Source: a virus. Taken from it: a stretch of 64,000 bases of DNA. The stretch is taken from the IMG/VR virus record IMGVR_UViG_3300045988_103180; one strand, 5' to 3'. How positions within the stretch are numbered: the stretch's first letter is position 1; each line of letters starts with the position of its first letter. Positions 1,658 to 39,214 of this stretch are shown here, one piece after another. A program made the translations under genes and the position numbers. The notes beneath the pieces were generated by a model, which saw only the letters and a program-made list of their open reading frames with translations, had not been told where the DNA came from and did not search any database.

Positions 1658-1881
1658 ATTGTATCTTCCTCTTGGTTATTTTCGCTTTCTTCATACCATG
1701 ATTCTAAATCTCTTTTCTGCCTGTAATTATCAATCTTATCACGAATAATCTCAAAAGGATAAAATATAATATCTACCCATTTGTCTATGATAATATAAGC
1801 CATAATAATAGCAAGACACAAAAGAATCGGTGACAAAAGCACAAGTATCAAAACTATGATTTGTCCAATTGTAACACACAT
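1654..1881 (-). CDS. hypothetical small membrane protein
   Basis: 75-aa ORF with a hydrophobic N-terminal segment (IIVLILVLLSPILLCLAIIMAYIII). Overlaps neighbours by 4 and 1 nt. Confidence 0.4.
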   Translation of the reverse strand: MCVTIGQIIVLILVLLSPILLCLAIIMAYIIIDKWVDIIFYPFEIIRDKIDNYRQKRDLESWYEESENNQEEDTI

Positions 1882-2960
1882 TATAGCATAATCCTGTTCT
1901 TAAATAGATACATAAATACATCTTTTCCTTGGTCTAATGGACTTGCCTTATATCCTAAAATATTCTCTCTATCAAACACTACAGACATATTCATATACGG
2001 CTTATATTTATTACCAATCTTGGCAATCTTTTCTTCAACCTTTAAACTTTCATCTGAACCATATTCATCAAAATCATGGTCAAATGCGATAACAATTTCT
2101 TTACATCCTGCATCTTTAAGAAGTTTGAATTGATATTTAGACAAGGAACTGCCGCATGTTGCAACACAAATATTATTACCTGTACCATAATATGACATGT
2201 AGGCAAGAACCGACTTTTCTGATTCGGCTACAACCGCAGTTTGTATTTCTCTAATTCTTTCTTTAGCCCAATTAAGACCATACAAGTTAAAGCCAAGAGC
2301 ATGATTATAAAGTTCACCGTGGACTCGCCAAGGCTTATATTTTCCTTTTTTCTCTTGCTCTTGGATAATAGTTCTTTGTCGAATACCTACACATCTATCA
2401 TTCTGGTCAAAGTGCGGGATAAGGATATTGCCGCCAAGAGAGTCATAATGAATTTGCGCAAAGTCACACACCTCTTTTGAGATATTAGACCAAGAGGAAA
2501 TAATAGGTTGAGGATAATGCTGAATAATAGATATATCATATTCTGGTAACTCAATGGTATTATCATTTACAGTTACATCTTTTTGCTCTTTATATCTATT
2601 GAATATTTTCCAGTCTTCTTGACTATCTTTTAAATCAATATCATTATCTAAATCAATTTGAAGATTTAAGAAATTAACCACGAAATAGATTGCGGAATTA
2701 AGGTCTACATTTTTAACTTTCTCAACAAGTTCAAAAATATCAAATGCGCCGCACTCAGTATAGCAATTAAACATACTATTCTCAAAATAATAATATAACT
2801 TCTTTGAACCTTCACCGATGCCATTGTGACAGATTGTGCGGGAAATGATATAATCAGAATACATTTCTGGTTCTGCTCCAAAGTATTCTAGAATATCATA
2901 TACGTTTTCTGGTTCAATTGATTCCTTTACTTTTGCTTTATCGTATCCCAATTCCCGCAC
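1881..2960 (-). CDS. DnaG-like DNA primase (zinc finger + TOPRIM)
   Basis: CHC2-type finger CHNG..x..FNCYTEC. TOPRIM Glu (VVAESEKSV) and DxD (IAFDHDFDEYG). Adjacent to the helicase. Confidence 0.7.
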   Translation of the reverse strand: MRELGYDKAKVKESIEPENVYDILEYFGAEPEMYSDYIISRTICHNGIGEGSKKLYYYFENSMFNCYTECGAFDIFELVEKVKNVDLNSAIYFVVNFLNLQIDLDNDIDLKDSQEDWKIFNRYKEQKDVTVNDNTIELPEYDISIIQHYPQPIISSWSNISKEVCDFAQIHYDSLGGNILIPHFDQNDRCVGIRQRTIIQEQEKKGKYKPWRVHGELYNHALGFNLYGLNWAKERIREIQTAVVAESEKSVLAYMSYYGTGNNICVATCGSSLSKYQFKLLKDAGCKEIVIAFDHDFDEYGSDESLKVEEKIAKIGNKYKPYMNMSVVFDRENILGYKASPLDQGKDVFMYLFKNRIML

Positions 2961-2963
2961 CTC

Positions 2964-3392
2964 CTATTCTTTCTTCTTTTGGAAAATTTCATCTTTGTCT
3001 ATTGGTTTAAAAGAGAAATCAGTTACAAATAAAGTCTTATATCGACAAGTACCTTTATTTGCGCGCATCCAACAAATAACACGATTGAATTTTCCTCGTC
3101 GATTCTTATATACGCTTCTTTTTACATTTGGTGGACACATTCCGGGATGCTGTGCCAAAACGCCTTCAATATCTTGAATATCTTCATCTGTACAATCAAC
3201 CATGATTTCACCATAGTCGATTCGGTTTGCAATTGATTTTGCGCCAGCTAGCATGTTCTGGTCTAGGATTTTCTCTTGCTTGTAACTACCATTAATTTGA
3301 GTAGAGGATAGAAGAAAAACATTGTTATCGACAGCTATTTCTTTAAGTTTAGATGACATAAGAAATAGAATTTGGTCTTCGCGTACTTTCAT
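2964..3392 (-). CDS. DnaB-like replicative helicase, C-terminal segment (exon 2)
   Basis: REDQILFLMSSKLKEIAVDNNVFLLSSTQING matches DnaB motifs H3/H4 (SRxLKxLAKEL..v..lsQlnR). Lacks its own Walker motifs. Confidence 0.65.
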   Translation of the reverse strand: MKVREDQILFLMSSKLKEIAVDNNVFLLSSTQINGSYKQEKILDQNMLAGAKSIANRIDYGEIMVDCTDEDIQDIEGVLAQHPGMCPPNVKRSVYKNRRGKFNRVICWMRANKGTCRYKTLFVTDFSFKPIDKDEIFQKKKE

Positions 3393-4301
3393 CAGTTTTG
3401 TTATCCTATAGGCTTTTTATCCTATAGTTCTTATAGTTTCCTATAAGCTCGGCGTACATTTTCACCTACAGCTTTATCTGTTTAGGTGTTGGACACTCTT
3501 GGCAGGATTATATTTATTCACCTGCTACGCTCTACGGTATCAATCAACCTTTCGCAATTTGATTGATTACCTCGGTATCAACATATTATATTAACTTAGT
3601 CTTCACCGATTTTGCCCAATAATAATTCTAAATATTACTATTTAGAACGGCATCTTAGTAGCAATTTTAAATTTTCTATCTAAATATACATTTGCATTAT
3701 CATACATTTGATGGGATATTTCTTTTGCATATTTTCCTTGCCATTCAATAATTGACAAGCCATTATCTCTAACTCTGATTTTGTTTCGTTTCCATTTTGT
3801 TCGTTCAAGCATCATATCAATAAACTCATATGTGCCACAAAATGATAATCGAGGATAGTCAATAGTTCCCTTTGTTATTTTCCCAAGAGAACCATCACCG
3901 TCACAATATCCTCTTACAAAATGATATAAAAAAGCATCTGGAACTTGTATTTCTGTTGGGAAAACTAAGTCTTTTGATTTGCGAGGATGACATCCAAGAT
4001 TTAACAAATCATTAAACATTGGCTTACATCTAAATACAAGTTCACATCTACCAAACTTACCGTTTTGTCTAATTTTTACTTCATTATCCCATTCTAAAAA
4101 ATCTTTTAATTTTTCTAAATGATGCTTATCACTAGATTTTAGCATAACGCCAATCCTAGAGTCTTCACTCATACAACCATCAGCGTATAAAAATCCAAGC
4201 CAATAAGCAGATTCTTCTGAACTTATTTTTGAAAACTTATTAATATTTACATGATATTTTATCATTTTCTCTTCTTTCCGATAGAAAATGATAATTGCTA
4301 C
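3393..4301 (-). mobile_element. intervening sequence splitting the helicase gene, probable group I intron carrying a homing endonuclease ORF
   Basis: 909 nt between the helicase Walker-B segment and the H3/H4 segment. Contains a free-standing LAGLIDADG ORF with its own RBS plus about 250 nt of non-coding, stem-rich sequence (3393-3641). Confidence 0.5.
3642..4265 (-). CDS. LAGLIDADG homing endonuclease (double-motif)
   Basis: Two LAGLIDADG motifs: YWLGFLYADGCM and FVRGYCDGDGSL. Own RBS GGAAAGAAGAGAAA before the ATG. Confidence 0.85.
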   Translation of the reverse strand: MIKYHVNINKFSKISSEESAYWLGFLYADGCMSEDSRIGVMLKSSDKHHLEKLKDFLEWDNEVKIRQNGKFGRCELVFRCKPMFNDLLNLGCHPRKSKDLVFPTEIQVPDAFLYHFVRGYCDGDGSLGKITKGTIDYPRLSFCGTYEFIDMMLERTKWKRNKIRVRDNGLSIIEWQGKYAKEISHQMYDNANVYLDRKFKIATKMPF

Positions 4302-5444
4302 TTATAGTCTACCAGTTCCATGTGAAATTTCCTCAATCATCTTAATAGATGAAGTTAAATAGTCAAAGACAACACACTGAAAAGTTAGGTAATCTGTATT
4401 GCCTTGTTCATTTACTCGTGGATATTTATATTTACGTATATTGCGTTTGATACAATTCTCAACATCTTTCATGCCATAGTTAGGAAGATATTCCATACGA
4501 AGTGGTGCTTCTTCTAGAATCTGTACTGCTTTCTTTAATCTCTCTTCTTCGTCAAAAGTAAGTAAATCCATTTCAACAATATGGTCTTCTGGAATATTAC
4601 CGATAAAAGCTAATGCCATGGTTGTAAGCTCTTCAATGTCTAGTTCTACCGAAATATATAAAGTAGGTACTCGATTATATAAACGTTCCCATTTACCTTC
4701 ATCTGAATAATACTCAGAACATGAGAAAAAACAAGCATCAGCAACACCAGTGCGGCTTTTGCCTACACCTGTCGCTGCACTTCTTAAATAAAAGCGGCCA
4801 GGTCGTGCGCCCATAGCGATTGCATCTTCATACATATCATACATTGCCCAGCCACGAGCAGGATGCTGCGCTAATTCATCTACAATCTTTTGGACGTTAT
4901 CACCAATAGCAACAGAGTCGTTATCGTTATTGTCTACATATAAATCCCTGATAAAATAAAACTTACCCTCTACATCATCTGCTAATTGCTCTAATGTTGT
5001 ACCATCAAGATACTCGTCTTGTGCCTGCTTCTTTGCAGAATCTAAGATATTATCAGGGTCATAAATATCAGATACATCTACGCCAACATCATCATACGCG
5101 CGAAGTAGAGACATCTTTTTTAAACGATTATAATAATACTCGAAAGCATCTAGGTGAGCATTTGCATGAGTTTCAAACATCCACTCTCTACCTTTGTTAG
5201 CTTTATAGACTGCATATGCTTTCGGCTTGTCTTTAAGATAATTCTCAATTTCTCGTGCAAGATGGTCAGTTACACCCGCGTTATATAGACTATACAATGC
5301 ACCAAATACCACCTTGTGTAAGTCATTGCAAAAGTCGTGTTCTGAAAAGAAGTATTGTCCATCTGCCGCCAAGTATTCAGGTTTCCGCATACAACATCCA
5401 ATTACCTGCAATGCCGCAACAGAATCATAGTATTTACTAATCAA
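4302..5444 (-). CDS. DnaB-like replicative helicase, N-terminal segment (exon 1)
   Basis: DnaB N-domain-like start, Walker A SAATGVGKSR, Walker B VVFDYLT. The frame then stops 10-15 codons after Walker B. Confidence 0.7.
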   Translation of the reverse strand: MISKYYDSVAALQVIGCCMRKPEYLAADGQYFFSEHDFCNDLHKVVFGALYSLYNAGVTDHLAREIENYLKDKPKAYAVYKANKGREWMFETHANAHLDAFEYYYNRLKKMSLLRAYDDVGVDVSDIYDPDNILDSAKKQAQDEYLDGTTLEQLADDVEGKFYFIRDLYVDNNDNDSVAIGDNVQKIVDELAQHPARGWAMYDMYEDAIAMGARPGRFYLRSAATGVGKSRTGVADACFFSCSEYYSDEGKWERLYNRVPTLYISVELDIEELTTMALAFIGNIPEDHIVEMDLLTFDEEERLKKAVQILEEAPLRMEYLPNYGMKDVENCIKRNIRKYKYPRVNEQGNTDYLTFQCVVFDYLTSSIKMIEEISHGTGRL

Positions 5445-8936: not shown

Positions 8937-9609
8937 TAACTTTTTTAGGGTATTTCCCGCATGATTTATGCTCTAAACAATAACCGGCTTTGTCGCATTT
9001 ACACTTAAAGAATAAATCACAGATAGTTTTCCATTCATCAGAATATTCAGATAGCGCTTCAATAATGTCTTTCATTAGCTGTCTAAACTCCCAATAGGCA
9101 CGAGTACATAGACGCTGTTCAGCCATTGTCATAAGTGTGCGGCTATTGAAACGACAACTAACAGTCGTTGTCATTCCAAGAGGGAGAACCATATTTGCAT
9201 CTTCCTGCGGAATTCCACATTCCTTTTGCATATAAGTAGTAGCTTCGGCAATAGCTTTCATACAAGAATTGTACATTTGCTTAGCATCTTCATTTGCTGC
9301 AATCTTAGGAGGAACTACATAATCAAAATCTTGATATTTGATATAACGCGTACTTGCCTGTAGACGTGTAGGCGCTCCACCATTATGAGTATAAAATTCT
9401 CGAATTACCTTTGCTGAATACCCTTCTAGAACAAACCATACTTCTCCAAATTCAAGCGTGCGGAAATGCCCATCTTTGATACAAGAAAGACCACGTTTAT
9501 AATTCTTTTCTACGTTACTGGTATCTGTGCCATAACAAGGGCCAGCCATTTCTCCAATTAACGTAATAGGATTTTTAATAGTATTACTGTTAATCGTTAC
9601 TTTTCCCAT
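8929..9609 (-). CDS. thyX: flavin-dependent thymidylate synthase ThyX
   Basis: DGHFRTLEFGEV (GHxSxxEH-like), a THN..STRY variant of the RHRxxSxxxxSxRY motif, and RLCTRAYWEFRQL (AQWEIR-like). Confidence 0.75.
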   Translation of the reverse strand: MGKVTINSNTIKNPITLIGEMAGPCYGTDTSNVEKNYKRGLSCIKDGHFRTLEFGEVWFVLEGYSAKVIREFYTHNGGAPTRLQASTRYIKYQDFDYVVPPKIAANEDAKQMYNSCMKAIAEATTYMQKECGIPQEDANMVLPLGMTTTVSCRFNSRTLMTMAEQRLCTRAYWEFRQLMKDIIEALSEYSDEWKTICDLFFKCKCDKAGYCLEHKSCGKYPKKVID

Positions 9610-10474
9610 TTACACCATCCTGTGAATTGAAACCATAGTTAACTGCATTATATACATCAATATAATATTTTTCTTTTTCATTTAATTCTTCTTGCGGGCA
9701 AAGCTCAACGACTTCAAATGTAAATTGGTCTAAGCCATCTTTAAGCATTGCTGCATACATCTTGTTATCTTTAGGTGTCTTTATGCCACATCCGCAACGA
9801 CAGTGCTGTGTAAAACGATTTGCAATATCTACAGACTGACCTATATAGCATTTTGTATCATTTATGTCTGTAATCTTATAAATACCGCAAGTTTTTTCAG
9901 TACCAACAATATTAACGAATAAAGCCTTTGCTTTCTTCTGGAAATACGTTGACCAAATTAGCTTTGAAAGAATCTCTGGGTTAGAAAGGCGGTTCTTAAA
10001 CGAATTTAAAATATCAATATCTGCTTTATCACTATCTTCGATAATGATACGATAATCATCTTTAGAATCTTGAACCGCCTGTTCACGTTGAAACGCTTCA
10101 ATTGTCGCAGCCTTTTGTCGCTTTAGTTTATCAAGCGAGTTTTGAAGAATTTGAATTTGCTCGACATATTCAGCTTTATCTTCATCGACTTGAGCCTGAA
10201 AATCACGAAGATTATTCATGATATTCTCTTTTTCAATTTTCTTGAAATCTTCAAAGCTCTGCTTCTGCTGTTCCACATTCTCTTGGAGAGATTTTAAATG
10301 TGCCTTTTCATTTTGAATTTGATATTCAATATGCTCTCGCGCAATAAGAACTTCTTTGTTGTTCTCTTTGACTATATCACATGTTTCTTTTCTGCCAGCT
10401 ATAACGCCTACGCTATAGCCGCATACGACAAATGTAATAGCGCAGACAACAGCTATAATAAATTCGAGAGCCAT
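9590..10474 (-). CDS. T5orf172/GIY-YIG-like nuclease domain protein with N-terminal TM helix and coiled coil
   Basis: C-terminal CGIYKITD...CYIGQSVDIANRFTQH...NEKEKYYI. N-terminal hydrophobic helix followed by a long Glu/Lys/Gln coiled coil. Confidence 0.6.
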   Translation of the reverse strand: MALEFIIAVVCAITFVVCGYSVGVIAGRKETCDIVKENNKEVLIAREHIEYQIQNEKAHLKSLQENVEQQKQSFEDFKKIEKENIMNNLRDFQAQVDEDKAEYVEQIQILQNSLDKLKRQKAATIEAFQREQAVQDSKDDYRIIIEDSDKADIDILNSFKNRLSNPEILSKLIWSTYFQKKAKALFVNIVGTEKTCGIYKITDINDTKCYIGQSVDIANRFTQHCRCGCGIKTPKDNKMYAAMLKDGLDQFTFEVVELCPQEELNEKEKYYIDVYNAVNYGFNSQDGVNGKSND

Positions 10475-15825: not shown

Positions 15826-15917
15826 GAATCTCCTTTCTTTTATAGATATTATATCATTTTCATTTTCAATTGTCAACAAAAAATGGATGCCGATTATAGC
15901 AATCGACATCCATGCAA

Positions 15918-16328
15918 TTACCTTCGCTTATTTTCTACATCTTTTAGGAACTGTCTGCGACTATCTACTTCATCCTTGCAGAATTCCTTGAAATTATTTT
16001 TCAAATTCCTATATTCCTTACGAGACGTGTACCAATCATGCTTTGCCCAACGACAAGCATCCTTAAAATATTTCGCATCCTCAAGCATATATGCGTAAGA
16101 CATAATACCATAATAACGCTCACGCATAGCTTCAGCACGCTTTTTCATAATTTTTACACGACACTTATACTCGGCAATACGCCAACCGCTCCAACGGTTT
16201 GCCACATCAACATCTTCGTCATGCGGCTTAGCATATCCAGTAAACGTACCCCACTTTGAAGATAGTGTTACCGATGCCAGTTTAGTGTTTTCATCCCAAG
16301 AACAATCAATTACTCGACGATGTGCCAT
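15918..16328 (-). CDS. hypothetical protein
   Basis: 136-aa ORF in operon packing. No motif recognised. Confidence 0.4.
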   Translation of the reverse strand: MAHRRVIDCSWDENTKLASVTLSSKWGTFTGYAKPHDEDVDVANRWSGWRIAEYKCRVKIMKKRAEAMRERYYGIMSYAYMLEDAKYFKDACRWAKHDWYTSRKEYRNLKNNFKEFCKDEVDSRRQFLKDVENKRR

Positions 16329-16338
16329 TTCTTTCTCC

Positions 16339-17190
16339 TTATAATTTATTATAGACTGTTGACATATAATAGTTCATGATAGCGAATTGAGTCGATTCAA
16401 GTGCATCCGCCGCATCTTTAGACGGCTCGGGAATAAATTTAGAATTATTCTCAATAAGCTCGTCCATTTTCATTACATACTTTTCTGCTTTTAACTTTGC
16501 ATCTTCTGGTGTAAAGACAGTACGGTAACGTTTAATATCCATCATTTCATCGCGATACATACTTTCTTTACCAAAAGAGTCATATTTATCAACCCATATA
16601 GCCCGAGAAAATGGTGCACCATCAATGAGATAACGTTTAACAAATAGATACAGTCGCATGATATGCTGCAATTCCTTCGCTACATATCCGTACTTCTCAA
16701 TCAGCTCATGATTGGCAGGAGAATCATGACAAATCTTCTTTGCCTTTTCCATTGCCATTCCAAGAGAAGAAAAGATTAGCTTCTGCGGATTAAGATTAGC
16801 AATATCATCACAATGTTTACGGAGATATTCCCAATAAATATTATATTGAGGATTCACAACATAATATTCAGTACAAAGAATCTCCAAGAAATTAATGTTA
16901 GCTTTATGGAGAATCTTAAAATAATCTCGAAAATCTTTTACAGTACAATGCTCGTCATTGTCCATAATCTCGACTTTATTAAGATGCTTCTTATCCAAGA
17001 ACAAATCATATGCTGTTGGGATCATAAGCAACTTGGTATCAACATCAGATTCTTCGTCCCATAGATTATAATTCATAGAACCATTGGCTGCGCATACAAG
17101 ATATGGATACTGCCAATACTTACCTGTGGCAATAATAGCGCTAAGATGCTCTTCAACCCTATTCTGAATCTTATTTACATTTTCTGCCAT
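16339..17190 (-). CDS. RlaP-like (RNA-repair-associated pol-beta fold) nucleotidyltransferase
   Basis: N-terminal NGSMNYNLWDEESDVDTKLL fits the GS-x9-12-SDxD nucleotidyltransferase signature. Directly downstream of the Ro60-like gene. Confidence 0.5.
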   Translation of the reverse strand: MAENVNKIQNRVEEHLSAIIATGKYWQYPYLVCAANGSMNYNLWDEESDVDTKLLMIPTAYDLFLDKKHLNKVEIMDNDEHCTVKDFRDYFKILHKANINFLEILCTEYYVVNPQYNIYWEYLRKHCDDIANLNPQKLIFSSLGMAMEKAKKICHDSPANHELIEKYGYVAKELQHIMRLYLFVKRYLIDGAPFSRAIWVDKYDSFGKESMYRDEMMDIKRYRTVFTPEDAKLKAEKYVMKMDELIENNSKFIPEPSKDAADALESTQFAIMNYYMSTVYNKL

Positions 17191-17215
17191 TTCTATTTCC
17201 TTTCTCTATATATGT

Positions 17216-17244
17216 ATTATAACAGATTTATTTATCATTGTCAA
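17216..17244 (-). promoter_or_regulatory. sigma70-type promoter
   Basis: Minus strand TTGACA-17-TATAAT. Confidence 0.5.
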
Positions 17245-17246
17245 TA

Positions 17247-17276
17247 CAAAAAAGGCACCCATGAGGGTGCCTTTAC
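17247..17276 (-). terminator. rho-independent terminator
   Basis: rc AAAGGCACCC-tcat-GGGTGCCTTT followed by TTTG. Confidence 0.65.
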
Positions 17277-17290
17277 CAAAAGAAAGAAAA

Positions 17291-18751
17291 TTAGAAGAGG
17301 TAGTTCTCGCTATCGTTGGCGTAGAAATGGTAGTTATCATTGATGTAGTCGTACAGCTTGCCGCCATTCTCTACGTATTTAAGCATCTTGAAGACGTTAT
17401 CGTTCAGAGCTGTCATGAGGTGGACGTCAGGATTGCCTGGATTAGCAATTTGGTCAGCATAGTTACCTAGGTCGAAACTATAAAGAATTGTGCGGCCATG
17501 TGTGGCACAATAATTATTATAGTTGCACATATCGTAAGTACTATCTCCCCAATAATGATACTGTCTTGCCATCACCTGCATATCAGAAACAACGAAGATG
17601 CGGTCGTACTTCTTATCACTGATAATACCGAAAGCAGGAGCAATGTCAGTTCCATAACCGCAATTATCGTTCTCACACATTTCACGAATGACTTGGAATG
17701 GGCCGCAAGCCTTCTTGAAAGTTGCAGACTTAGCACGATTGCCGAACTTTACAAAATCGCAATTACCATTAATGTAAAGAGCCGCAGCATAGCAAGCGCC
17801 AACTTCCTTGATAGTAAGATTGGACTTGTTACCGTAGCGGTCTTCCATCGAACCGGAAACATCAAGCATGATAACGGAATTACCTTCTAGCTTGGGCATA
17901 TTGCCGCAAGCAATACGGAAAGCAGTATCAAGTGCAGTGATAACTGCAAAGTTCTGAACATTTAGATTACGATAAGCAGTATAAATCTGATAAGGAAATA
18001 CAAGAGACTTCTTGATAGAAACCTCGTTAATAAGCTGGTCTACAAGATTACGCTTAATCCATTCGTCGTCAACGTCCTCTGCGAGAATGTTATTGAGATT
18101 ACGGATAAGAGCGAGATAACCGAGACGATTACCCTCAACCATATTCTTCCAACTGTTCTTGCCAGTGGAGATATTGACTTCCCAAGTATCAGCAGCTTCT
18201 AGCTTACCATTCATGTAACCATCAACAATGCCACTCTTGGGATGAATGATATTGATAAGGTCATACATGTTATAGCGCTTACCCTTCATCTGATACTTCA
18301 TAAGATTGTACTCAGAAAGACCAGACATATAATCTGCAAAACCACGAATCATAGCATGAGAACGCTTGCCACCAAGCATGTCAACAGCTGCGAAAATCTC
18401 AGACATATCATCAGGACGATGACAGAAAGCCTTATAGAAATCGCGCTTGCGCTCAAAGCTCTGACCATTCAGCATAGCCGCAACAAGCTGCGAAACACTA
18501 CGCATACCAAGTTGGTTTCGTGCAAACATGGCACACTTACCAGCGAACTCAGCGCCATACTTATCAATTACAAGATTCGTAAGTTCGATGAAACGAGTCT
18601 GCTGCGTGTCAGCATTCTCATAGAAACCATCGTCCATCTTGCTAGAGAACAAGAAATTCATCCAATCCTCAAGTACATCCTTCTTGTAATTCTCGCCGCC
18701 CTCGTATGACATAGAACGTTCGGTCTTAACCTTTTCATTAAACTTAGACAT
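17291..18751 (-). CDS. rsr: Ro60/Rsr ortholog (TROVE domain + vWA/MIDAS)
   Basis: YEGGENY..LEDWMNFLF..GFYE, LMKYQMKGKRYNMYDLINIIHPK, MIDAS IMLDVSGSM, GYGTDIAP, IFVVSDMQ. These line up with my recollection of Deinococcus Rsr. Confidence 0.75.
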   Translation of the reverse strand: MSKFNEKVKTERSMSYEGGENYKKDVLEDWMNFLFSSKMDDGFYENADTQQTRFIELTNLVIDKYGAEFAGKCAMFARNQLGMRSVSQLVAAMLNGQSFERKRDFYKAFCHRPDDMSEIFAAVDMLGGKRSHAMIRGFADYMSGLSEYNLMKYQMKGKRYNMYDLINIIHPKSGIVDGYMNGKLEAADTWEVNISTGKNSWKNMVEGNRLGYLALIRNLNNILAEDVDDEWIKRNLVDQLINEVSIKKSLVFPYQIYTAYRNLNVQNFAVITALDTAFRIACGNMPKLEGNSVIMLDVSGSMEDRYGNKSNLTIKEVGACYAAALYINGNCDFVKFGNRAKSATFKKACGPFQVIREMCENDNCGYGTDIAPAFGIISDKKYDRIFVVSDMQVMARQYHYWGDSTYDMCNYNNYCATHGRTILYSFDLGNYADQIANPGNPDVHLMTALNDNVFKMLKYVENGGKLYDYINDNYHFYANDSENYLF

Positions 18752-18788
18752 ATCTTATCACTTTCTCTTGGAAGGAAAACTTTCTTAT

Positions 18789-18818
18789 ATTATAACATCT
18801 GTTTATATAGCTTGTCAA
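18789..18818 (-). promoter_or_regulatory. sigma70-type promoter
   Basis: Minus strand TTGACA-18-TATAAT, then a CCAAGAGA leader. Confidence 0.5.
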
Positions 18819-18826
18819 GTAAAATT

Positions 18827-19615
18827 TTAGAAAACATCTAGGTCATGGAAACCTGAATAGTCAATGATTTTCAAATTGCCAAGAGCATCATAACCATAGT
18901 TGCCAGTATGCAAGTCTGAAATCTTTTCTTTATAAAGAAAATCAATAAAACGTTGAGTTGCCCTGCGACCATACGTTTCAATGAAAACGCCACACTCTGT
19001 AGTATAAAATTCACTATAGCTATCTTTGTGCTCTTTGCGACTTTTGTCAATCATTGCCTTTGCAATTTTATCCGTCTTGCGGCAATTGCTCTTTTTACGA
19101 TTGTATGTTTTCCCAGCGCAAGAAGAAACATACACCGGAACGCCGCATATAAAACCTAAAAAAGCAGTCTTAGTAAACATCTGATTAACATTATACTTGC
19201 GGGCAATACGATAAATATATTCTTCAACCGCACAATAGTCATTTGCATCTACTGGATATGCACCATCATTATTTGCATTTTTATAAAGGACTACATCATC
19301 AAAGCAGAAATACATAGGCACACGCTCTTGCTCAGCACAGTCTTTAAAATATTGATTATCTTCATCCTCAATATGAAAAAATCCAATATAAGGAATCTTA
19401 AACACATAGTTAGCAAACTCTTTAAAATGAAATACAGATTTGGAACAACCACAATTAACCCAATCAGCACCAATAGTATTGCCAATTTGCTTAATAAAAT
19501 TATAAAAAGTATCTTCAACGGCATCTTCAAAATATACCTGAGACAATTTTAAAAATTCAGGATTACAATTACGAAATCTATTATCAAGAAAATTAAGCAT
19601 CTCTGATTTATTCAT
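18827..19615 (-). CDS. hypothetical protein
   Basis: 262-aa ORF. No motif recognised. Confidence 0.45.
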   Translation of the reverse strand: MNKSEMLNFLDNRFRNCNPEFLKLSQVYFEDAVEDTFYNFIKQIGNTIGADWVNCGCSKSVFHFKEFANYVFKIPYIGFFHIEDEDNQYFKDCAEQERVPMYFCFDDVVLYKNANNDGAYPVDANDYCAVEEYIYRIARKYNVNQMFTKTAFLGFICGVPVYVSSCAGKTYNRKKSNCRKTDKIAKAMIDKSRKEHKDSYSEFYTTECGVFIETYGRRATQRFIDFLYKEKISDLHTGNYGYDALGNLKIIDYSGFHDLDVF

Positions 19616-19642
19616 ATAGTTTCCTTTCTTCGTTCCACTATA

Positions 19643-19975
19643 TTATATCATTTCAGAGTTGCATTTGTCAATTATTTTCTTTTTAGTGCCGATGGCTTTA
19701 CCTTTTTCATCTAAAACCGTGCCGATAGGACATCTTTTATAAACATATTTTAAAAATTCGTCTACCCTTTCAGTCTCATTTTTGTACATACCAAGAGAAA
19801 GAAAGGGTAGAATCTCATTATTTATATGTTCATATTCAGCATACGTGTCATCGTCTAATTTTCTAGTGCATCCTTGCCTAGATTCTTCTGGAACATATTC
19901 ACCTATGCGGCACAAGAGACATGAGTCATTGTCGCACTCATGACAATGCAAGCTAATGATAGTGTAATCATCCAT
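19643..19975 (-). CDS. hypothetical Cys-rich protein
   Basis: 110-aa ORF with CHECDNDSCLLC. Confidence 0.4.
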   Translation of the reverse strand: MDDYTIISLHCHECDNDSCLLCRIGEYVPEESRQGCTRKLDDDTYAEYEHINNEILPFLSLGMYKNETERVDEFLKYVYKRCPIGTVLDEKGKAIGTKKKIIDKCNSEMI

Positions 19976-20724: not shown

Positions 20725-21657
20725 TTAGTTGTTAAGAATGTACTCGCGCACTCGTGCCTGAGCAAGACCCTTGATTGCGGCCAACTTTACAGAAGCAGCC
20801 TTCTTCTTCTTGAAGAAGTCCCAGAAGTTCTCTTCAATAAGCTCGTCAAGAACTTTGTTGATAGCCATGCCAAAGAACTTACCATTCTTACAATCAATCA
20901 TATCCATATCGAGAGCGATAAGGACCTTGTTGATTTCCTTCTCGACAAAAGCATCAGTGCAATACTTCTCTACGAACTCCTTCTCCAAGGAATCAGTTCC
21001 AGTATAGGCAGTCTTCTTCTTAGTCTTGTCATTATGCCACTCATCACGTACAATCTTTGCAATTTGGATATTGCCCCACGGGTCGCGCACACAAGGATAA
21101 GCCTTGATTACGATGCCCTCACCGATAGTCCCCTTTGGAAGATTGTAAATACATTCGTCAACATGCTTATTCACATCATCCCAAGTCATGTTGCTGATGC
21201 GGCAAATGACAGGAACGCAACGATGATAGAACTTGCTGACTACTGGATACCATACATCATAATCAATATACTCACTATCATCAGTATTGAGAATATCAAA
21301 GATGAAGAATCCGCCCTCAAGATAAGTTTTGATAGTACCAGTGAACTTGCGGCCATCAACTCCGCCAAGCCACTCACCATAAATGATATAATTAGGATGG
21401 TCAAGCAACCAATTCTTTAGTGCATTAACCTCAGTATCGTCAGTGTTGGTGATATAATCAGCGAAACCAGCGTTATCCTTCTCGATAGAAATCTCACGAG
21501 TGCGGCTACCGCAAGTAATATTTCCATTATCGTTTACCCAGACAGAACTATTCGTACCATCCAGCTTCGGCTGCAAAATTGTGTCACGACCGATAAAGTT
21601 CTGAACTTCTGCACGAGTCGAGCGCTCAAGATGCACATACTTATTGAAATGAGACAT
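20725..21657 (-). CDS. Rnl2-like RNA ligase (nucleotidyltransferase superfamily)
   Basis: Motif I QPKLDGTN, motif III IIYGEW, motif IV GEGIVIK, motif V IAKIVRDEW. Confidence 0.6.
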   Translation of the reverse strand: MSHFNKYVHLERSTRAEVQNFIGRDTILQPKLDGTNSSVWVNDNGNITCGSRTREISIEKDNAGFADYITNTDDTEVNALKNWLLDHPNYIIYGEWLGGVDGRKFTGTIKTYLEGGFFIFDILNTDDSEYIDYDVWYPVVSKFYHRCVPVICRISNMTWDDVNKHVDECIYNLPKGTIGEGIVIKAYPCVRDPWGNIQIAKIVRDEWHNDKTKKKTAYTGTDSLEKEFVEKYCTDAFVEKEINKVLIALDMDMIDCKNGKFFGMAINKVLDELIEENFWDFFKKKKAASVKLAAIKGLAQARVREYILNN

Positions 21658-21689
21658 TATAAAATCCTTTCTCTTGTTTTCGTAATTAC

Positions 21690-21718
21690 ATTATACACAA
21701 ATTTTTGACCGCACGCAA
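21690..21718 (-). promoter_or_regulatory. sigma70-type promoter
   Basis: Minus strand TTGCGT-17-TATAAT. Confidence 0.5.
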
Positions 21719-22050
21719 GAACTTTTTTCTTCTCTTTTTCTTATTTCTTTTTACTACTTTACTACGTAAAGTAGTTTATTTTTCTTTATTCTTTTATTAT
21801 CTTCTTTTAATAGAAATTACTGTGCGTAGCACAGGAATTTCTTTATAATAAAATCTTTTATATAATACAATTATATAATATCTCTTTCTTATATATATAA
21901 AAATCAATATACATATATAAACTATTTTATATAAACTAATATAATTTATTTTATATATATTTAAGGGGTAAACCCCTTAACAACCCAGTTAAAAAGTATA
22001 ATGATTTTCAAATCTTTTGTCAAGAAAAAAATTTTAACTAAAATTCTTTT

Positions 22051-22080
22051 TAAAAAAGTATTGACAGGCACTATTGCTAT
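22051..22080 (+). promoter_or_regulatory. sigma70-type promoter
   Basis: TTGACA-18-TATAAT. Confidence 0.55.
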
Positions 22081-22120
22081 GATTTATAATATAGCCAACG
22101 CATAAAAGAAAGGATATTAC

Positions 22121-22501
22121 ATGGAACCAATTACAGCAGAAAAAGCACGTGACATGCGTTATGTCGCATTAAAGAAGAAAAAAGAAGAGCGATTAAAGAA
22201 AGTCCAAGAGTACGATTACTTCCATATCGTAATGGAAGATATTGAGAAAGCTGCCAATGACGGCAAGAACAGCTTAGACTTTTATCCGCATATATCAGAC
22301 TTCTACGATGAAATCATTCAAAGCGGTAGCATTGTACCAGCCGCGGACAAAGATTTTTCCCACCACGAGAAGGAAGTTTTTAAAGCTCTTGAAGAATCTC
22401 TTGGCTATGACGTAACACGCAATGAATACTATCAAGTAACTTATTTTCGTGGCGTTGACCGCATTGATATTACGATTAGTAAGTATACTATCTATTGGTA
22501 G
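22121..22501 (+). CDS. hypothetical protein
   Basis: 126-aa ORF behind RBS AGAAAGGA. Confidence 0.45.
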   Translation: MEPITAEKARDMRYVALKKKKEERLKKVQEYDYFHIVMEDIEKAANDGKNSLDFYPHISDFYDEIIQSGSIVPAADKDFSHHEKEVFKALEESLGYDVTRNEYYQVTYFRGVDRIDITISKYTIYW

Positions 22502-22507: not shown

Positions 22508-23020
22508 ATGAAACATACGCTAATTCTAATGTGTGGCGTAACGCAGAGTGGCAAATCTGTATTTGCAAAGGCAATTCAAGATTCACATGAAGACTGTATG
22601 ACAATCAAGAGAGATAATTGCCGCATGTATAATTCAGAAGATGCAAACACAGTTGACAAACGTTTCTATAATGCAGTAAATATTGCCTTAAAATCACATC
22701 GTTACGTTGTGGCGAATGACCGCAATATCAATCGCGTTGAGCGCGATAAATTTTTCAACAATGTAAATTATAATGGTTGCGAGGTTGTTTGTGTTTGGGT
22801 TGAGACTCCACAAAATGTAGCAGTTGCGCGCAATAAGAATCGTGATAAATATCATCGTTTAAGTGAAAAGGAAATTGCAGAAATGTATAGATGCAAAGTT
22901 TCGCCACAAGAAAATGAGTCGTTTGACAAGATTGTATTTATTTCAGAGCAGCAAAACTACGCTATCGGCACAAATAATATGCAAATTTTGCCAATCATTG
23001 ACCAACTAAAGGCAATCTAG
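22508..23020 (+). CDS. P-loop polynucleotide-kinase-like (AAA_33-type) kinase
   Basis: Walker A MCGVTQSGKS, RDNCR, and WVETPQNVAVARNKNR resembling the T4 Pnk kinase domain. Confidence 0.55.
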   Translation: MKHTLILMCGVTQSGKSVFAKAIQDSHEDCMTIKRDNCRMYNSEDANTVDKRFYNAVNIALKSHRYVVANDRNINRVERDKFFNNVNYNGCEVVCVWVETPQNVAVARNKNRDKYHRLSEKEIAEMYRCKVSPQENESFDKIVFISEQQNYAIGTNNMQILPIIDQLKAI

Positions 23021-25040: not shown

Positions 25041-25613
25041 ATGATTACTCAGTATGGTTGCAGCACAGAGTTTTGTGAGACAGCAAGGCGCAATGTGATT
25101 GACGCATATAAAAAGTGGACCGATGAAGAGATTAAAGCTGACCTGCAAAAGAATAGGCTCCCGATGGTTTCTATCTTTATGAATGTAGGATATAATATCA
25201 ATATTGCCAGCGGCATCCGCGCACATAATGCGTTTCTTGGAAAAGAAATCTATATCATTGGCCGTAAGAAATGGGACAGGCGTGGCTCAATTAGCACTCA
25301 TAGATATGAAACTGTATATCATGCTGATAATTTTGATGAAGTTTTAGAAATTCTTCACCCTCTTGGATATACTATCTTTGCTGTGGATAATATTCCAGAG
25401 TATAATCCGCATAATATTTATGATGCCGACATTCCCATGAAGTCTGCGTTTGTATATGGCAATGAGTGTGACGGTTTGCCAAAAGAAATCATTGACAAAT
25501 GCGATGAAATGATTTATATTCGTCAATATGGTTCTTGCCGTTCATTGAATGTTGCGCAAAGCGCAGCCTGTTGCATGATGGAATATTCTCGACGTTATAG
25601 GATGAAAGGTTAA
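25041..25613 (+). CDS. SpoU/TrmH-family RNA 2'-O-ribose methyltransferase
   Basis: SPOUT C-terminal knot motifs: FVYGNECDGLPKEI, IYIRQYGSCRSLNVAQSAA. Confidence 0.7.
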   Translation: MITQYGCSTEFCETARRNVIDAYKKWTDEEIKADLQKNRLPMVSIFMNVGYNINIASGIRAHNAFLGKEIYIIGRKKWDRRGSISTHRYETVYHADNFDEVLEILHPLGYTIFAVDNIPEYNPHNIYDADIPMKSAFVYGNECDGLPKEIIDKCDEMIYIRQYGSCRSLNVAQSAACCMMEYSRRYRMKG

Positions 25614-28765: not shown

Positions 28766-29713
28766 ATGAACGAAGTCGATATACTGCGTAATAGCTCGCT
28801 TGTGCGCGAGAAGCATCTTGCCAATGGAATCTCTTCTTTTAATTTCTCAAACAAGTGCTTTTTCAACCAAGCATGGGATGATATTAATGTTAAAGCACGC
28901 GGACTTTTTGTAAAAGATGATAATAAGGTTGTTGCACGTTCGTACAACAAGTTCTTCAATATTGGAGAGCGTCCTGAGACTGAAATGGCTAGCCTGCGCG
29001 AGAATCTTGTGTTCCCTGTGTGCGCATATGTCAAGTCTAACGGATTCCTTGCTATGATTTCTGCCGACCCGACCGAGGATGGTAAACTGTTCATCGCATC
29101 CAAGAGCACGAATGAGGGAGATTTCGCAGGATATATCCGTGACGTTCTTGACAAGACGTTGACCACTGCACAGCAGGAGGAATTCGCAGAATATCTGCAC
29201 AAGAATGACTGCACTGCTGTCTTCGAGTGCATTGACCCTATCCATGACCCGCATATCGTTGAGTATTCGCATCCTCACCTCGTGCTTTTGGACTTGGTGT
29301 ACAATGATTTTAACTATAGCCATGCGGGGTACTATACACTTATTGACGTAGCGGGACATTTCGGATTCTATTGCAAGGTTCTTAGCAAAGTCATTGCTAA
29401 CTGGCAGGAGTTTGAAGCCTTTATTGACAAGTGGGCCGCGTGTGCATACATCGAGGGCTTTGTCTTCGAGGATTCGAACGGTTTCATGGTGAAATATAAG
29501 ACTCCTTGGTACAAGAACTGGAAGCAGGTTCGTGGAGTTTTACAGCAGGTTTGGACTGGACGCGATATTGATACTATCAAGAACATCAAGACCAAGCTGG
29601 CATTTGAACCTCGTCTCATGGCCGCAATTCCTGAGTTCGTGGAAGAGTGCCGCGAGCAAGGTCGTGGAGCTTGCCCCTCGGTAATCGAATTGCGTAACTG
29701 GTTTGAAAATTAA
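28766..29713 (+). CDS. T4 Rnl1-like (RnlA/Trl1-type) tRNA-repair RNA ligase
   Basis: Colinear with T4 Rnl1 as I recall it: KARGLFV, YNKFFNIGERPE (MEKFFNLNENP), motif I YVKSNGFL, VFECIDP, IEGFVFEDSNGFMVKYKTPWY ([21 protein letters not shown]). Confidence 0.7.
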   Translation: MNEVDILRNSSLVREKHLANGISSFNFSNKCFFNQAWDDINVKARGLFVKDDNKVVARSYNKFFNIGERPETEMASLRENLVFPVCAYVKSNGFLAMISADPTEDGKLFIASKSTNEGDFAGYIRDVLDKTLTTAQQEEFAEYLHKNDCTAVFECIDPIHDPHIVEYSHPHLVLLDLVYNDFNYSHAGYYTLIDVAGHFGFYCKVLSKVIANWQEFEAFIDKWAACAYIEGFVFEDSNGFMVKYKTPWYKNWKQVRGVLQQVWTGRDIDTIKNIKTKLAFEPRLMAAIPEFVEECREQGRGACPSVIELRNWFEN

Positions 29714-33421: not shown

Positions 33422-33451
33422 TTGACAGACTTTATATCAATATGATATAAT
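33422..33451 (+). promoter_or_regulatory. sigma70-type promoter of the first tRNA transcription unit
   Basis: TTGACA-18-TATAAT. Confidence 0.55.
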
Positions 33452-33848: not shown

Positions 33849-33866
33849 CCTAGTTAAAAAAATTAC

Positions 33867-33895: not shown

Positions 33896-33901
33896 ATAGT
33901 T

Positions 33902-34000
33902 AACAAATCGTGATGGTGAAGGTTCAGGTTCGACTCCTGCCGCTGTCCGACAAGGACGGCGTAGTTTCAATTGGTGAGAATAGCACCTAGCGATTGTGTT
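33902..34000 (+). ncRNA. circularly permuted tRNA-like RNA 1 (YrlA-class Y-RNA candidate)
   Basis: Terminal stem AACAAATCG/CGATTGTGTT with one bulge, then UGAU. T-arm CAGG-TTCGACT-CCTG. 8-bp acceptor-like stem CGCTGTCC/GGACGGCG closed by GACAA. D-arm GTTT-CAATTGGTGA-GAAT. Confidence 0.55.
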
Positions 34001-34370
34001 ATATCCAATGCTTGGGGAGAGGTTATCGCTGCAAGGTAAATGTCTCCCGACTTCTATAATCTTTTGCAGGGATTATAGATTAAAGGGTTGGCGGTTTTCC
34101 CAGTTTGAAACCGTCCACGTGATTATATTATCTTGCTTGCAAGATTTTATATATGCCGGCTCTGTAGCCGTAGACAATGCGGGCCAGCGCATACTTGAAA
34201 AGAAGCGCCTAGGGGAAGAGGAATCTGGTATATTTTGGTAGTTTTCAAACCTCTGCAGATGTGAAAACTACTACTTTAATTGCGGGTGGGAGGTCAGTAT
34301 CTCACGGAGTCTCATAAGCTCTGTTAAGTTTCGGCAGCAGAAACACCTCGCGACCAATTTTTGTTATAAA
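34001..34370 (+). ncRNA. ORF-free, hairpin-dense RNA segment of unknown class
   Basis: G+C-richer than its surroundings. Hairpins GGGGAGA..TCTCCC, TCTATAATC..GATTATAGA, ATCTTGC..GCAAGAT, GTAGTTTTCA..TGAAAACTAC. No RBS-preceded ORF. Confidence 0.35.
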
Positions 34371-34377
34371 AAATTAT

Positions 34378-34710: not shown

Positions 34711-34724
34711 TTAAGTTTATTTAT

Positions 34725-36478: not shown

Positions 36479-36506
36479 AGGGACTCTTTTGAGTCCCTAT
36501 TTTTTG
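36479..36506 (+). terminator. rho-independent terminator
   Basis: AGGGACTC-tttt-GAGTCCCT followed by ATTTTTTG. Confidence 0.6.
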
Positions 36507-36536
36507 TTGACTATTGGCTATATATTATGCTATAAT
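36507..36536 (+). promoter_or_regulatory. sigma70-type promoter
   Basis: TTGACT-18-TATAAT. Confidence 0.55.
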
Positions 36537-36563
36537 ATATTTAAGAAATCGAAAGGAGATTCA

Positions 36564-37100
36564 ATGAGCATCTTTGTAGTCAGTGACACTCATTTTTCGC
36601 ATCAGAATATTATCAATTATTGTGAGAAGTCGCGTGCTTTTAATACGGTTGATGACATGAACGAAGACATCATCGAAAGGTGGAATTCCGTTGTATCTCC
36701 TGATGATACTATCTATCATCTTGGTGATTGCTTCATGGGACCGCTTGAGACTGTAGCTAAATATGGTTCTCATCTCAATGGAAAGGTTCATGTGATTCCC
36801 GGCAATCATGATACCAAGAAACGCATTGCTGAAATGGAAAAGCTCGGCTGGATTATTGAAAACAAGGTATCTTGTCTTGATTACAATGATGTCAGTTTCA
36901 TTATGATTCACGAGCGCCCCGAGGAAATGCGTGGAGACAGCGCCAATGTCATTCTATACGGTCATGTTCATGATGCGGCTCCCAAGGGCCTTGTTGATTG
37001 GACATATCATGTAGGTGTTGACACTAATAATCTTACTCCTGTTAATATTCATGACATTTGGCTCGATGTCCAGCAGAAGAAGATTGAGCTTGGAGAGTAA
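36564..37100 (+). CDS. calcineurin-like metallophosphoesterase
   Basis: MSIFVVSDTHFSH, YHLGDCF, IPGNHD, GHVH. Start at 36564 behind GAAAGGAG. Confidence 0.75.
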   Translation: MSIFVVSDTHFSHQNIINYCEKSRAFNTVDDMNEDIIERWNSVVSPDDTIYHLGDCFMGPLETVAKYGSHLNGKVHVIPGNHDTKKRIAEMEKLGWIIENKVSCLDYNDVSFIMIHERPEEMRGDSANVILYGHVHDAAPKGLVDWTYHVGVDTNNLTPVNIHDIWLDVQQKKIELGE

Positions 37101-38993: not shown

Positions 38994-39003
38994 ATAGTTA
39001 TCA

Positions 39004-39097
39004 AGTCGAGCATAGAGCAGATGTGGGTTCGACTCCCATCCTTGCCCGACAAGGGCGAGGTAGTTTAATTGGTTAAATACGGTTCTTACGTTCGACT
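39004..39097 (+). ncRNA. circularly permuted tRNA-like RNA 2 (YrlA-class Y-RNA candidate)
   Basis: Terminal stem AGTCGAG/TTCGACT. T-arm GTGGG-TTCGACT-CCCAT. 8-bp acceptor-like stem CCTTGCCC/GGGCGAGG closed by GACAA. D-arm GTTT-AATTGGTT-AAAT. Confidence 0.55.
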
Positions 39098-39214
39098 AGA
39101 TATATAGAAAATATAGGAAATAGCTTAACCCTATATTTTCAACTTCTAAAGCCTAGCTAGCTTTAGATTAAAAGGTTCGCAACTATCCTTAAAATGGTTG
39201 CCACTAGTGACGGT

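Follow-up and report, generated by a model that had tools for sequence, protein, structure and literature searches.

The closest relative of solved structure to the protein reported here is the Ro60 of phage phiLo (PDB 9KOP, 9L5Y; Hu et al., NAR 2025, PMC12135203), which binds phage Y-like RNAs and also the host polynucleotide phosphorylase (PNPase). In bacteria, ring-shaped Rsr proteins are accompanied by the tRNA-mimicking Y RNAs YrlA and YrlB, as in the Salmonella rsr-yrlBA-rtcBA genes and the Deinococcus Rsr-Y RNA-PNPase complex (PMC4201824); Y RNAs adjoin the Ro gene in 254 bacteria and 22 phages (PMC4201824). Phage Ro60 with Y RNAs is an established category, represented by mycobacteriophages and other phages with YrlA-like RNAs (PMC4201824), and phage Ro60 itself had been published before (Pedulla 2003, as cited in PMC4201824). 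RlaP, a nucleotidyltransferase, appends one or two nucleoside monophosphates to damaged RNA 3'-OH ends and aids the restoration of over-damaged repaired tRNA (PMC12776372), an activity established for the Pseudomonas enzymes only (PMC12776372); ROT/TROVE proteins together with RlaP and RNA ligases have been described as an RNA-repair theme of phages, jumbo phages in particular (PMC7824862). Here we describe a 64,000-nt stretch of phage DNA, IMG/VR record IMGVR_UViG_3300045988_103180 (the window), in which the gene for a Ro60-type protein is followed by one for an RlaP-family nucleotidyltransferase, while two genes for Y-like RNAs, A and B, lie far off among tRNA genes. An earlier account of this DNA, made from its letters alone (the sequence-only reading), had proposed a Ro60/Rsr ortholog paired with an RlaP-type enzyme, with tRNA-like RNAs elsewhere in the window.

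The 486-amino-acid (aa) open reading frame (ORF) for Ro lies exactly where it had been placed (Table 1), and the motifs quoted from it are all found in the translation: the N-terminal YEGGENY, LEDWMNFLF and GFYE (aa 16-45), the segment LMKYQMKGKRYNMYDLINIIHPK (aa 150-172) and the MIDAS (metal-ion-dependent adhesion site) elements MLDVSGSM (295-302), GYGTDIAP (365-372) and IFVVSDMQ (385-392). The profile search that had been suggested gives Pfam TROVE (PF05731) at 56.5 bits against a cutoff of 23 (E-value 3.8e-15), over aa 183-265 only; TROVE is matched by all 38 members of the Ro family. For the Ro60-specific model of the von Willebrand factor A (vWA) domain, PF25045, the window protein stays below threshold (15.7 bits against 27.7), and 15 of the 38 family members reach E <=0.01. 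The PHROG family phrog_850 ('RNA-binding protein') is matched over its full length at E 5e-28. Among solved structures, phiLo Ro60 (9L5Y/9KOP) provides the sole sequence matches by phmmer (E 1.8e-22, aa 13-392); with a profile of 38 homologues this improves to 6e-34, and Xenopus Ro60 (5.6e-6), human Ro60 (6e-5) and Deinococcus Rsr (2.4e-4) are matched as well. The proposed likeness of the KY..HPK segment to Deinococcus Rsr was not reproduced, the segment alone retrieving no Rsr; by phmmer it aligns with LLKYKRARRVVSQRLAIRLTHPR of the solved phiLo Ro60.

The AlphaFold2 (AF2) model of the protein (predicted local distance difference test score, pLDDT, 82.5; predicted template-modelling score, pTM, 0.80) is a HEAT-repeat ring with a vWA domain, the Ro toroid that the sequence-only reading had expected; the significant TROVE match and the Ro-like fold were the two points on which it had said the assignment would turn. 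The top 13 Foldseek matches in the PDB are all Ro60 or Rsr proteins (phiLo, Xenopus, human, Deinococcus), with 487-544 aligned columns and template-modelling (TM) scores of 0.61-0.74; these are the sole full-length matches, and those that follow are isolated vWA domains only, at a TM of about 0.24. The MIDAS residues D297, S299, S301, T368 and D390 are invariant in the alignment of 38 sequences and align with the Ca2+ ligands D322/S324/T391/D416 of phiLo Ro60. When the phiLo mutagenesis was mapped through the phmmer alignment (chain index = published numbering + 8, checked on seven residues), positive charge was found to be kept at two of the four strongest RNA-contact residues (K142 to R136 and R178 to K172), while R137 and K141 align to S131 and I135 of the window protein, with the conserved K129 and R130 alongside.

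By sequence and predicted fold, then, the window protein is a phage-type Ro60 homologue of the subfamily typified by phiLo Ro60 (phrog_850), and may bind Y RNA and misfolded RNA. Of the earlier designation as an ortholog of Rsr, the Ro60 homology stands and the equivalence to Rsr does not, the NCBIfam equivalog NF041674 giving 16.8 bits against a cutoff of 900. With phiLo Ro60, its best match by both sequence and fold, it has in common the HEAT ring with inserted vWA domain, the aligned MIDAS ligands, the KY..HP(K/R) helix, part of the basic RNA-contact surface and the fact of being phage-encoded with phage Y-like RNAs, but the two are only about 20-25% identical. Relatives of the window Ro, less than 30% identical, are present in 85 GenBank phages, some of them annotated 'Ro-like RNA binding protein' or 'TROVE domain-containing protein', and 1179 Ro sequences of this phage group were counted in metagenome clusters at 90% identity.

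The tRNA-like RNAs that the sequence-only reading had cited at 33902 and 39004 are real, both being full-length matches to the structure model; its statement that they are of the kind used by bacterial Y RNAs is borne out too, A and B being YrlA-type by alignment with YrlA, structure model and covariation. They have a common 41-nt core pattern, reproduced in none of 100 shuffles of the window, and each begins a few bases past a promoter that matches the consensus at all 12 positions. A permissive Rfam scan returned a full-model match to YrlA (RF02553) at 38998-39106, within RNA B, at 32.4 bits against a threshold of 69. Folded unaided, RNA B gives a four-way junction (z = -4.5) with two basal stems, the T-arm GGUUCGACUCC, an 8-bp acceptor-like stem capped by GACAA, and a D-arm; RNA A likewise has basal stems, a T-arm, an acceptor-like stem of 8 bp with a GACAA cap, and a D-arm. 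The nucleotides of tRNA tertiary contacts are conserved (GGUUCGAnUCC, the U8/R9 equivalents and the D-loop A..GG..A). As modelled, RNA B amounts to a tRNA whose termini are closed and whose anticodon stem is opened, which is how Chen et al. 2014 describe YrlA.

A covariance model seeded on RNA B recovered RNA A at E 4e-13, together with diverged copies in related contigs. Over 15 sequences, 92.8% of cells are paired and double changes occur in 30 of 34 pairs, with a covariation score of 0.58 against 0.07-0.13 in slid controls. Over 32 distinct sequences, from phages whose Ro is 23-98% identical to that of the window, the corresponding values are 88.9%, 33 of 34 and 0.57 against 0.06-0.13, and they were reached by none of 500 shuffles. 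The alignments were fitted to the model, so that pairing is somewhat inflated; the signal is taken to be real because the slid controls are low and the distinct pair types many. The A/B alignment was rebuilt through Infernal, MAFFT having misplaced the 3' halves.

Several further candidates were rejected. The best sub-threshold YrlA match, at 35083-35211 (36.2 bits), runs across the T-arm of one tRNA and the D-arm of the tRNA after it, false positives of this class being described explicitly by Chen et al. (PMC4201824), and is judged false because the tandem pair 35060-35128 (+; a tRNA by Rfam at 44.2 bits, not by ARAGORN) and tRNA-Asn 35158-35230 lies there. Matches to model R2 in the relatives L002, L013, L028 and L029 overlap tandem tRNAs as well, and most matches in exact-pattern scans with the core motif fell on the 3' ends of tRNAs by chance (L003 and 20 of 22 metagenome loci). 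Matches to model R1 at L001 9197-9297 and at window 36028-36134 are without the tRNA-like module; the latter (+ strand) is a lone T-arm-like hairpin, GCAGGUUCGACUCCUGC (17.7 bits), with no D-arm or acceptor-like stem, and may be a remnant of a tRNA or Y RNA. The reading of A and B as permuted tRNA genes was also set aside, the basal stem being an interrupted helix of about 17-20 bp with no equivalent of an anticodon loop. On the 3' side of RNA A, positions 34008-34410 (+) include about 350 nt that are gene-free and hairpin-rich; the first part is conserved in relatives (CCAAUGCUUGGGGAGAGGUUAUCGCUGCAAG...), a terminator-like hairpin lies near 34131-34152, and a 12/12 promoter at 34378-34407 (+) is followed by a leader of about 160 nt and a small ORF from 34571. 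These elements may be further non-coding RNAs.

A connection of RNAs of this type with Ro is seen in relatives whose Ro is at most 55% identical to that of the window, where Y-like RNAs lie 35-900 nt upstream of Ro on the same strand (17 matches in 14 IMG/VR loci, plus L030, L031, L033, L034 and L035). None of them overlaps a real tRNA gene, and the Rfam YrlA model gives weak matches, of 29-40 bits, in the same places. In three of these relatives a second Y-like RNA is present in the tRNA region (L030 at 18279, L031 at 18268, L034 at 17090). Within the clade of the window itself (Ro at least 71% identical), the structure model finds no Y-like RNA within 6 kb of Ro, and the gap upstream of the window Ro measures 76 nt (300-420 nt in relatives) and retains nothing but the promoter and the shared 5' untranslated region; from the short gap and the empty 6 kb, the Ro-adjacent copy appears to have been lost in this clade, leaving the two copies in the tRNA clusters. 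In relative L029, with no Ro in the equivalent position, no Y-like RNA was found in the region searched.

The RNAs of the two locations also have short motifs in common. RNAs A and B carry AGUUA[A/U] 30-31 nt upstream of the T-loop, in the same register as the AGUUAC of the Ro-adjacent RNAs; of the 33 elements, 16 have AGUUA[C/A/U] at 29-34 nt upstream of the T-loop (the background at any position being about 9% per 100-nt window), and about half have a 3' motif resembling UAUUUCC some 59-74 nt downstream of that loop. The motif-bearing elements (window, L030, L034, L062, L063, L068, L070, L072, L073, L080, L082 and L083) span phages whose Ro proteins are 23-55% identical. It is possible that AGUUA/UAUUUCC marks a phage-type site for Ro binding or processing, distinct from GNCGAA. 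In one distant member of this set, L082 (Ro 29% identical), positions 1-5302 hold more than 15 tRNA genes and a permuted tmRNA (1044-1202; Rfam 64.3 bits against a threshold of 47) immediately upstream of two Y-like RNAs and Ro.

Set beside phiLo, whose Y-like RNAs are encoded directly upstream of the Ro60 gene and are defined by CGAA, the RNAs of the window are tRNA-like, without CGAA and 15-20 kb from Ro; the phiLo host is a Thermus species and that of the window phage a probable Bacillota, and adjacency to RlaP is not described for phiLo. The bacterial Rsr systems resemble the window in the ring protein with tRNA-mimic Y RNAs, in having two Y RNAs per genome and in a genomic tie to RNA-repair enzymes, but differ in that the window protein is no Rsr equivalog, GNCGAAN0-1G is absent, the Y RNA genes are unlinked from Ro, and the repair partners are ATP-dependent ligases and a kinase rather than RtcB/RtcA. 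The 22 phages of Chen et al. 2014 are of other lineages, less than 30% identical, with the RNA no more than 4 kb from Ro and on the same strand.

The gene next to Ro, likewise present as stated in the sequence-only reading, encodes 283 amino acids with the quoted GS..SDVD signature of Pol-beta nucleotidyltransferases, found as GSMNYNLWDEESDVDTK. The suggested search for RlaP gave matches among homologues: the 283-aa protein has no match of its own in Pfam or NCBIfam (phrog_388, 'nucleotidyltransferase', is matched at E 4.8e-15), while PF10127 is matched at E <=0.01 by 11 of 26 family members, with no other family recurring, and its curated cutoff of 23 is passed by four (P0130, P0131, P0138 and P0142, at 24.4-27.1 bits). 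These four are 36-59% identical to the 283-aa protein (E 1e-44 to 1e-84), P0130 and P0131 being 55-59% identical. G37-S38, D49-x-D51 and D86 are invariant across 26 aligned sequences, which fits the three catalytic aspartates reported for RlaP; D86, from its beta-strand position in the model, would be the third catalytic carboxylate. The AF2 model (pLDDT 91.7) has an N-terminal nucleotidyltransferase domain and a C-terminal helical domain that together form a cleft. Its closest PDB folds in the searched set, which did not include PfRlaP, are kanamycin nucleotidyltransferase ANT(4') and HalB (TM about 0.44). In a viral structure library, full-length TM values of 0.71-0.73 were obtained with nrdC.11-like nucleotidyltransferases of Bacillus phages, and one match bears the accession prefix of phage 0305phi8-36, where the matching gene is annotated 'nrdC.11-like'; NrdC.11 of T4 belongs to the RlaP family (PMC12776372, PMC7824862). 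In a phmmer search of the PDB the sole matches of the 283-aa protein were spurious ones to cytochrome c peroxidase.

The family matches and the fold together support an RlaP-like neighbour, and by sequence the 283-aa protein is probably a divergent RlaP-family nucleotidyltransferase. It has the Pol-beta nucleotidyltransferase and helical domains of the known RlaP proteins (PF10127; P. fluorescens and P. aeruginosa RlaP; PMC12776372, PMC7824862), their GS..DxD..D catalytic set and their genomic tie to RNA ligases, in phages also to ROT/TROVE, but is too divergent to match PF10127 itself. In the window the distance from the RlaP gene is 3.5 kb to a PF09414 ligase and 11.6 kb to an Rnl1 ligase, and this arrangement of ligases near RlaP is conserved among relatives. 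RlaP sequences of this phage group number 984 in the 90%-identity metagenome clusters.

The adjacency of Ro and RlaP is strongly conserved. Ro, RlaP and a 136-aa ORF follow one another in all 25 IMG/VR loci with Ro at least 71% identical and also in L032 and L033; Ro then RlaP is found even in the distant locus L066 (Ro 55%, RlaP 41% identity). In 12 sister-clade loci (Ro 51-55%), a T4 Rnl1-type ligase stands directly downstream of Ro in place of RlaP. One or the other of these repair enzymes is the immediate downstream neighbour of Ro in 38 of 48 IMG/VR loci, and all relatives have a PF09414 RNA ligase at 3-4 kb upstream of Ro. The 'pairing' of Ro with RlaP proposed in the sequence-only reading holds as adjacency rather than as a demonstrable operon, each gene having its own 12/12 promoter, with a terminator between them. 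The 136-aa protein has no family match in Pfam, NCBIfam or PHROG. The conserved 262-aa protein encoded upstream of Ro gives only a weak match to L7Ae (E 0.067); it occurs also in a relative without Ro.

The rest of the gene set (Table 1) matches the jumbo-phage RNA-repair theme of PMC7824862. The phage T4 pair Pnkp-Rnl1 is a known parallel to the kinase, phosphoesterase and Rnl1-family ligase. Pnkp-Rnl1 repairs tRNA against the anticodon nuclease PrrC. The general scheme of tRNA repair as in T4 has been described (PMC7824862). Both T4 and the window phage carry tRNA genes and encode these three activities, but in the window the kinase and phosphoesterase are separate proteins, and its kit adds Ro, Y RNAs, RlaP, a second ligase and a SpoU methylase.

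Table 1. Predicted features of the Ro-RlaP locus, the Y-like RNAs and the surrounding RNA-repair genes in the window
Feature	Coordinates	Strand	Evidence
Conserved 136-aa protein, always 3' of RlaP in the window clade	15918..16328	-	tblastn synteny
Divergent RlaP-family (PF10127) Pol-beta nucleotidyltransferase, 283 aa	16339..17190	-	phrog_388, homologues, AF2/Foldseek
RlaP gene promoter, TTGACA-N17-TATAAT	17216..17244	-	12/12 consensus
Intrinsic terminator directly 3' of Ro stop codon	17251..17274	-	10-bp stem, 6 GC pairs, T-run
Ro60-type protein, 486 aa: HEAT-repeat TROVE ring, inserted vWA, complete MIDAS	17291..18751	-	Pfam, PHROG, phmmer, AF2/Foldseek
Ro gene promoter, TTGACA-N18-TATAAT, TG extension	18789..18818	-	12/12 consensus
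Conserved 262-aa protein upstream of Ro in all clades	18827..19615	-	tblastn
RNA ligase, PF09414 family	20725..21657	-	Pfam 59.6 bits, phrog_548 3e-40
Polynucleotide-kinase-type P-loop kinase	22508..23020	+	phrog_505, Pfam AAA_33 and KTI12
SpoU-family RNA 2'-O-methyltransferase	25041..25613	+	Pfam PF00588 79.1 bits
T4 Rnl1-family RNA ligase	28766..29713	+	Pfam PF09511 143.9 bits, phrog_8238
RNA A promoter, 12/12	33867-33895	+	consensus
Y-like RNA A, YrlA-type	33898..34007	+	R1 and R2 models (60.7 and 97.2 bits), shared core, covariation
Calcineurin-like phosphoesterase, candidate 3'-end healing enzyme	36489..37100	+	Pfam Metallophos_2 44.3 bits
RNA B promoter, 12/12	38964-38993	+	consensus
Y-like RNA B, YrlA-type, paralogue of A	38996..39108	+	Rfam YrlA, unaided fold, R1/R2 matches

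The identity of the parts is secure; the protein folds, motifs, family links, promoters, terminator, covarying RNA structure and synteny are shown by computation, and what we infer concerns the formation of a ribonucleoprotein (RNP), the timing of expression, the partners and the coupling of pathways. With moderate confidence, the best overall explanation is that phage Ro60 and RNAs A and B form an RNP that serves as an arm of the RNA-repair kit. Transcription of Ro, probably early in infection, would start at the gene's own consensus promoter, and the protein would assemble with RNAs A and B, the basal stem of each binding the outer face of the ring in the way known from other complexes of Ro with Y RNA. 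Left exposed, the tRNA-like module (T-arm, closed acceptor-like stem and D-arm) could then tether the ring to a partner that recognises tRNA or processes RNA. The particle would act within or alongside the phage's RNA quality-control and repair kit, in which the kinase and phosphoesterase would heal broken RNA ends, RlaP would restore one or two nucleotides at 3'-OH ends before ligation, and the Rnl1-type and PF09414-type ligases would seal the break. The likely aim would be to keep phage and host tRNAs functional under attack by host ribotoxins such as anticodon nucleases. A bolder version, which we consider unlikely as a whole, is that the Ro-Y RNA particle is a physical component of tRNA repair and that AGUUA(C)/UAUUUCC, not GNCGAA, is the site recognised by Ro; the tRNA-mimic module could in that case recruit RlaP, Rnl1 and the kinase to damaged tRNAs held in the Ro ring. 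If true, Ro60 RNPs and RNA repair would for the first time be connected by a mechanism, and the presence of rsr and Y RNA genes in repair operons would be explained.

Several observations weigh against the RNP as an arm of the repair kit. The distance to Ro is 15.1 kb for RNA A and 20.2 kb for RNA B, both encoded on the strand opposite to it, which puts them outside the published limit of 4 kb on the same strand. RNA B stays well under the Rfam YrlA threshold, and RNA A has no YrlA match in Rfam. The published Ro-binding motif GNCGAAN0-1G is absent from both, B reading GUCGAG and A AUCGUG. Ro and RlaP form two transcription units divided by a terminator, and RlaP was not found near Ro in the sister-clade loci. 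In L029 (a single case on a partial contig) the same block runs from the 262-aa gene straight to Rnl1, and the ligases, kinase and phosphoesterase are kept without Ro in the equivalent position; Ro is therefore dispensable for the repair block. Finally, the sole biochemical precedent for a phage Ro60 is the modulation of host PNPase, not repair (PMC12135203).

That precedent underlies the main rival, which we regard as a possibility, tentative though real: the Ro-Y RNA particle would redirect or dampen host PNPase, or another 3'-5' exoribonuclease, via the Y RNA. A corollary of about the same tentative standing is that RlaP and the ligases are independent of it, their adjacency to Ro being a clustering of early genes of RNA metabolism. 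In phiLo, Ro60 and its Y-like RNAs form a complex with Thermus PNPase and attenuate it (PMC12135203), and Ro-Y RNA-PNPase complexes, as in Deinococcus and Salmonella, represent the best-established bacterial function (PMC4201824); the separate promoters of Ro and RlaP, and the fact that the gene downstream of Ro varies by clade, also speak for it. Against this, Ro sits among RNA-repair genes in every clade examined, and so often with RlaP or Rnl1 as its immediate downstream neighbour (the 38 of 48 loci above). The hijacking of a host nuclease and a part in repair are mutually compatible.

An improbable alternative takes the loss of the adjacent Y RNA gene at face value: A and B would not be partners of Ro at all, and Ro would bind other, misfolded RNAs. 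The roles this would leave for A and B, each of them equally doubtful, are decoys for host nucleases that target tRNA, substrates or regulators of tRNA-processing enzymes, or processing signals of the tRNA operons. The shortened gap upstream of Ro, the position of A and B in tRNA clusters at a distance and on the other strand, the missing published motif and the location of RNA B just upstream of an array of seven tRNAs all agree with it. Yet A and B belong to a covarying family that includes the Ro-adjacent RNAs and have AGUUA at the same register, in the Ro-bearing relatives L030, L031 and L034 the tRNA region likewise holds a Y-like RNA, the second of the genome, and two Y RNAs per Ro gene are the bacterial norm (PMC4201824). 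That the protein keeps the Ro fold but works mainly as a vWA/MIDAS adaptor for protein binding (in anti-defence, for instance), with no dedicated RNA partner, is highly improbable, for while its MIDAS is strictly conserved, and the role of the MIDAS in Ro60 proteins is still to be established (PMC12135203), conservation of the site extends to all Ro60 proteins, and these bind RNA, the basic residues aligned to RNA-contact positions are conserved, and Y-like RNA genes co-occur with Ro across the family.

Publications already exist on phage Ro60, on Ro-adjacent phage Y RNAs and on phage RlaP (PMC4201824, PMC12135203, PMC7824862, PMC12776372). The new elements are modest ones: Y RNA genes that are unlinked from Ro and lie within tRNA arrays, a motif that is a candidate for an alternative recognition site, and a repair kit of unusual completeness in an uncultured phage that is prevalent. 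What Ro60, a conserved autoantigen, does at the molecular level is understood only in part, and its recurrent genomic link with repair enzymes is without a mechanistic explanation. Here about 25 kb hold Ro, two Y RNAs, RlaP, two ligases, a kinase, a phosphoesterase and a SpoU methylase, each with its own strong promoter, and so offer a compact natural system for reconstituting that link; in public metagenomes the phage group is common, as the counts of Ro and RlaP sequences (1179 and 984) attest. Searches that demand a Y RNA on the same strand as Ro and no more than 4 kb away would overlook cases such as this one, and the curated Rfam model detects RNAs of this kind weakly; the model supplied here for phage Y RNAs is supported by covariation.

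The window is AT-rich (GC about 34-47%) and is considered part of an uncultured phage genome of about 140 kb, because its proteins occur on metagenomic and IMG/VR contigs of 130-147 kb. A near-identity search of GenBank phages with the DNA of the locus gave zero matches, and the topoisomerase gene matched GenBank phages at less than 30% identity throughout, no close relative being found. Genes for replication and metabolism include those for a primase, a DnaB-like helicase, Sak4, thymidylate synthase, DNA ligase and topoisomerase II. There are 13-14 tRNA genes, and an Rfam scan of the window at curated thresholds returned tRNAs only. Eight perfect 12/12 promoters (TTGACA-N17/18-TATAAT, six with a TG extension) lie in 15848-19671 and 33422-38993, each preceding an individual small gene or RNA, a pattern that points to many independently transcribed early units. 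The host probably has a holoenzyme of the sigma-A/sigma-70 type and is probably a Bacillota species, a loose deduction from the Bacillota-type promoters and from the RlaP homologues in phages of Bacillus, Listeria and Brevibacillus.

Two radical-SAM proteins (37956-38855 and 39724-40500, +) flank the block of RNA B and the seven-tRNA array; with the SpoU methylase, they suggest phage-encoded RNA modification. Within the array, ARAGORN reports at 39215-39287 (+) a tRNA whose anticodon has four bases, 'gacg', so that the anticodon loop would be enlarged; its tRNA score in Rfam is 35.1 bits, and it is conserved, occupying the same place in the arrays of L002 and L013. It could be a quadruplet-decoding or otherwise unusual tRNA. 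At about 21657-22121 the window has a divergent strand switch, with minus-strand genes to the left and plus-strand genes to the right, and the GC skew changes sign at the same point, near 21.7-22.1 kb; this could be an origin region or merely a region of divergent early promoters. ORF 9590-10474 (-), adjoining the thymidylate synthase gene, has a C-terminal GIY-YIG homing-endonuclease domain, an arrangement kept in the relatives L032 and L033, and in L029 positions 1-669 encode a topoisomerase A subunit with an intein bearing a LAGLIDADG endonuclease, according to precomputed Pfam matches.

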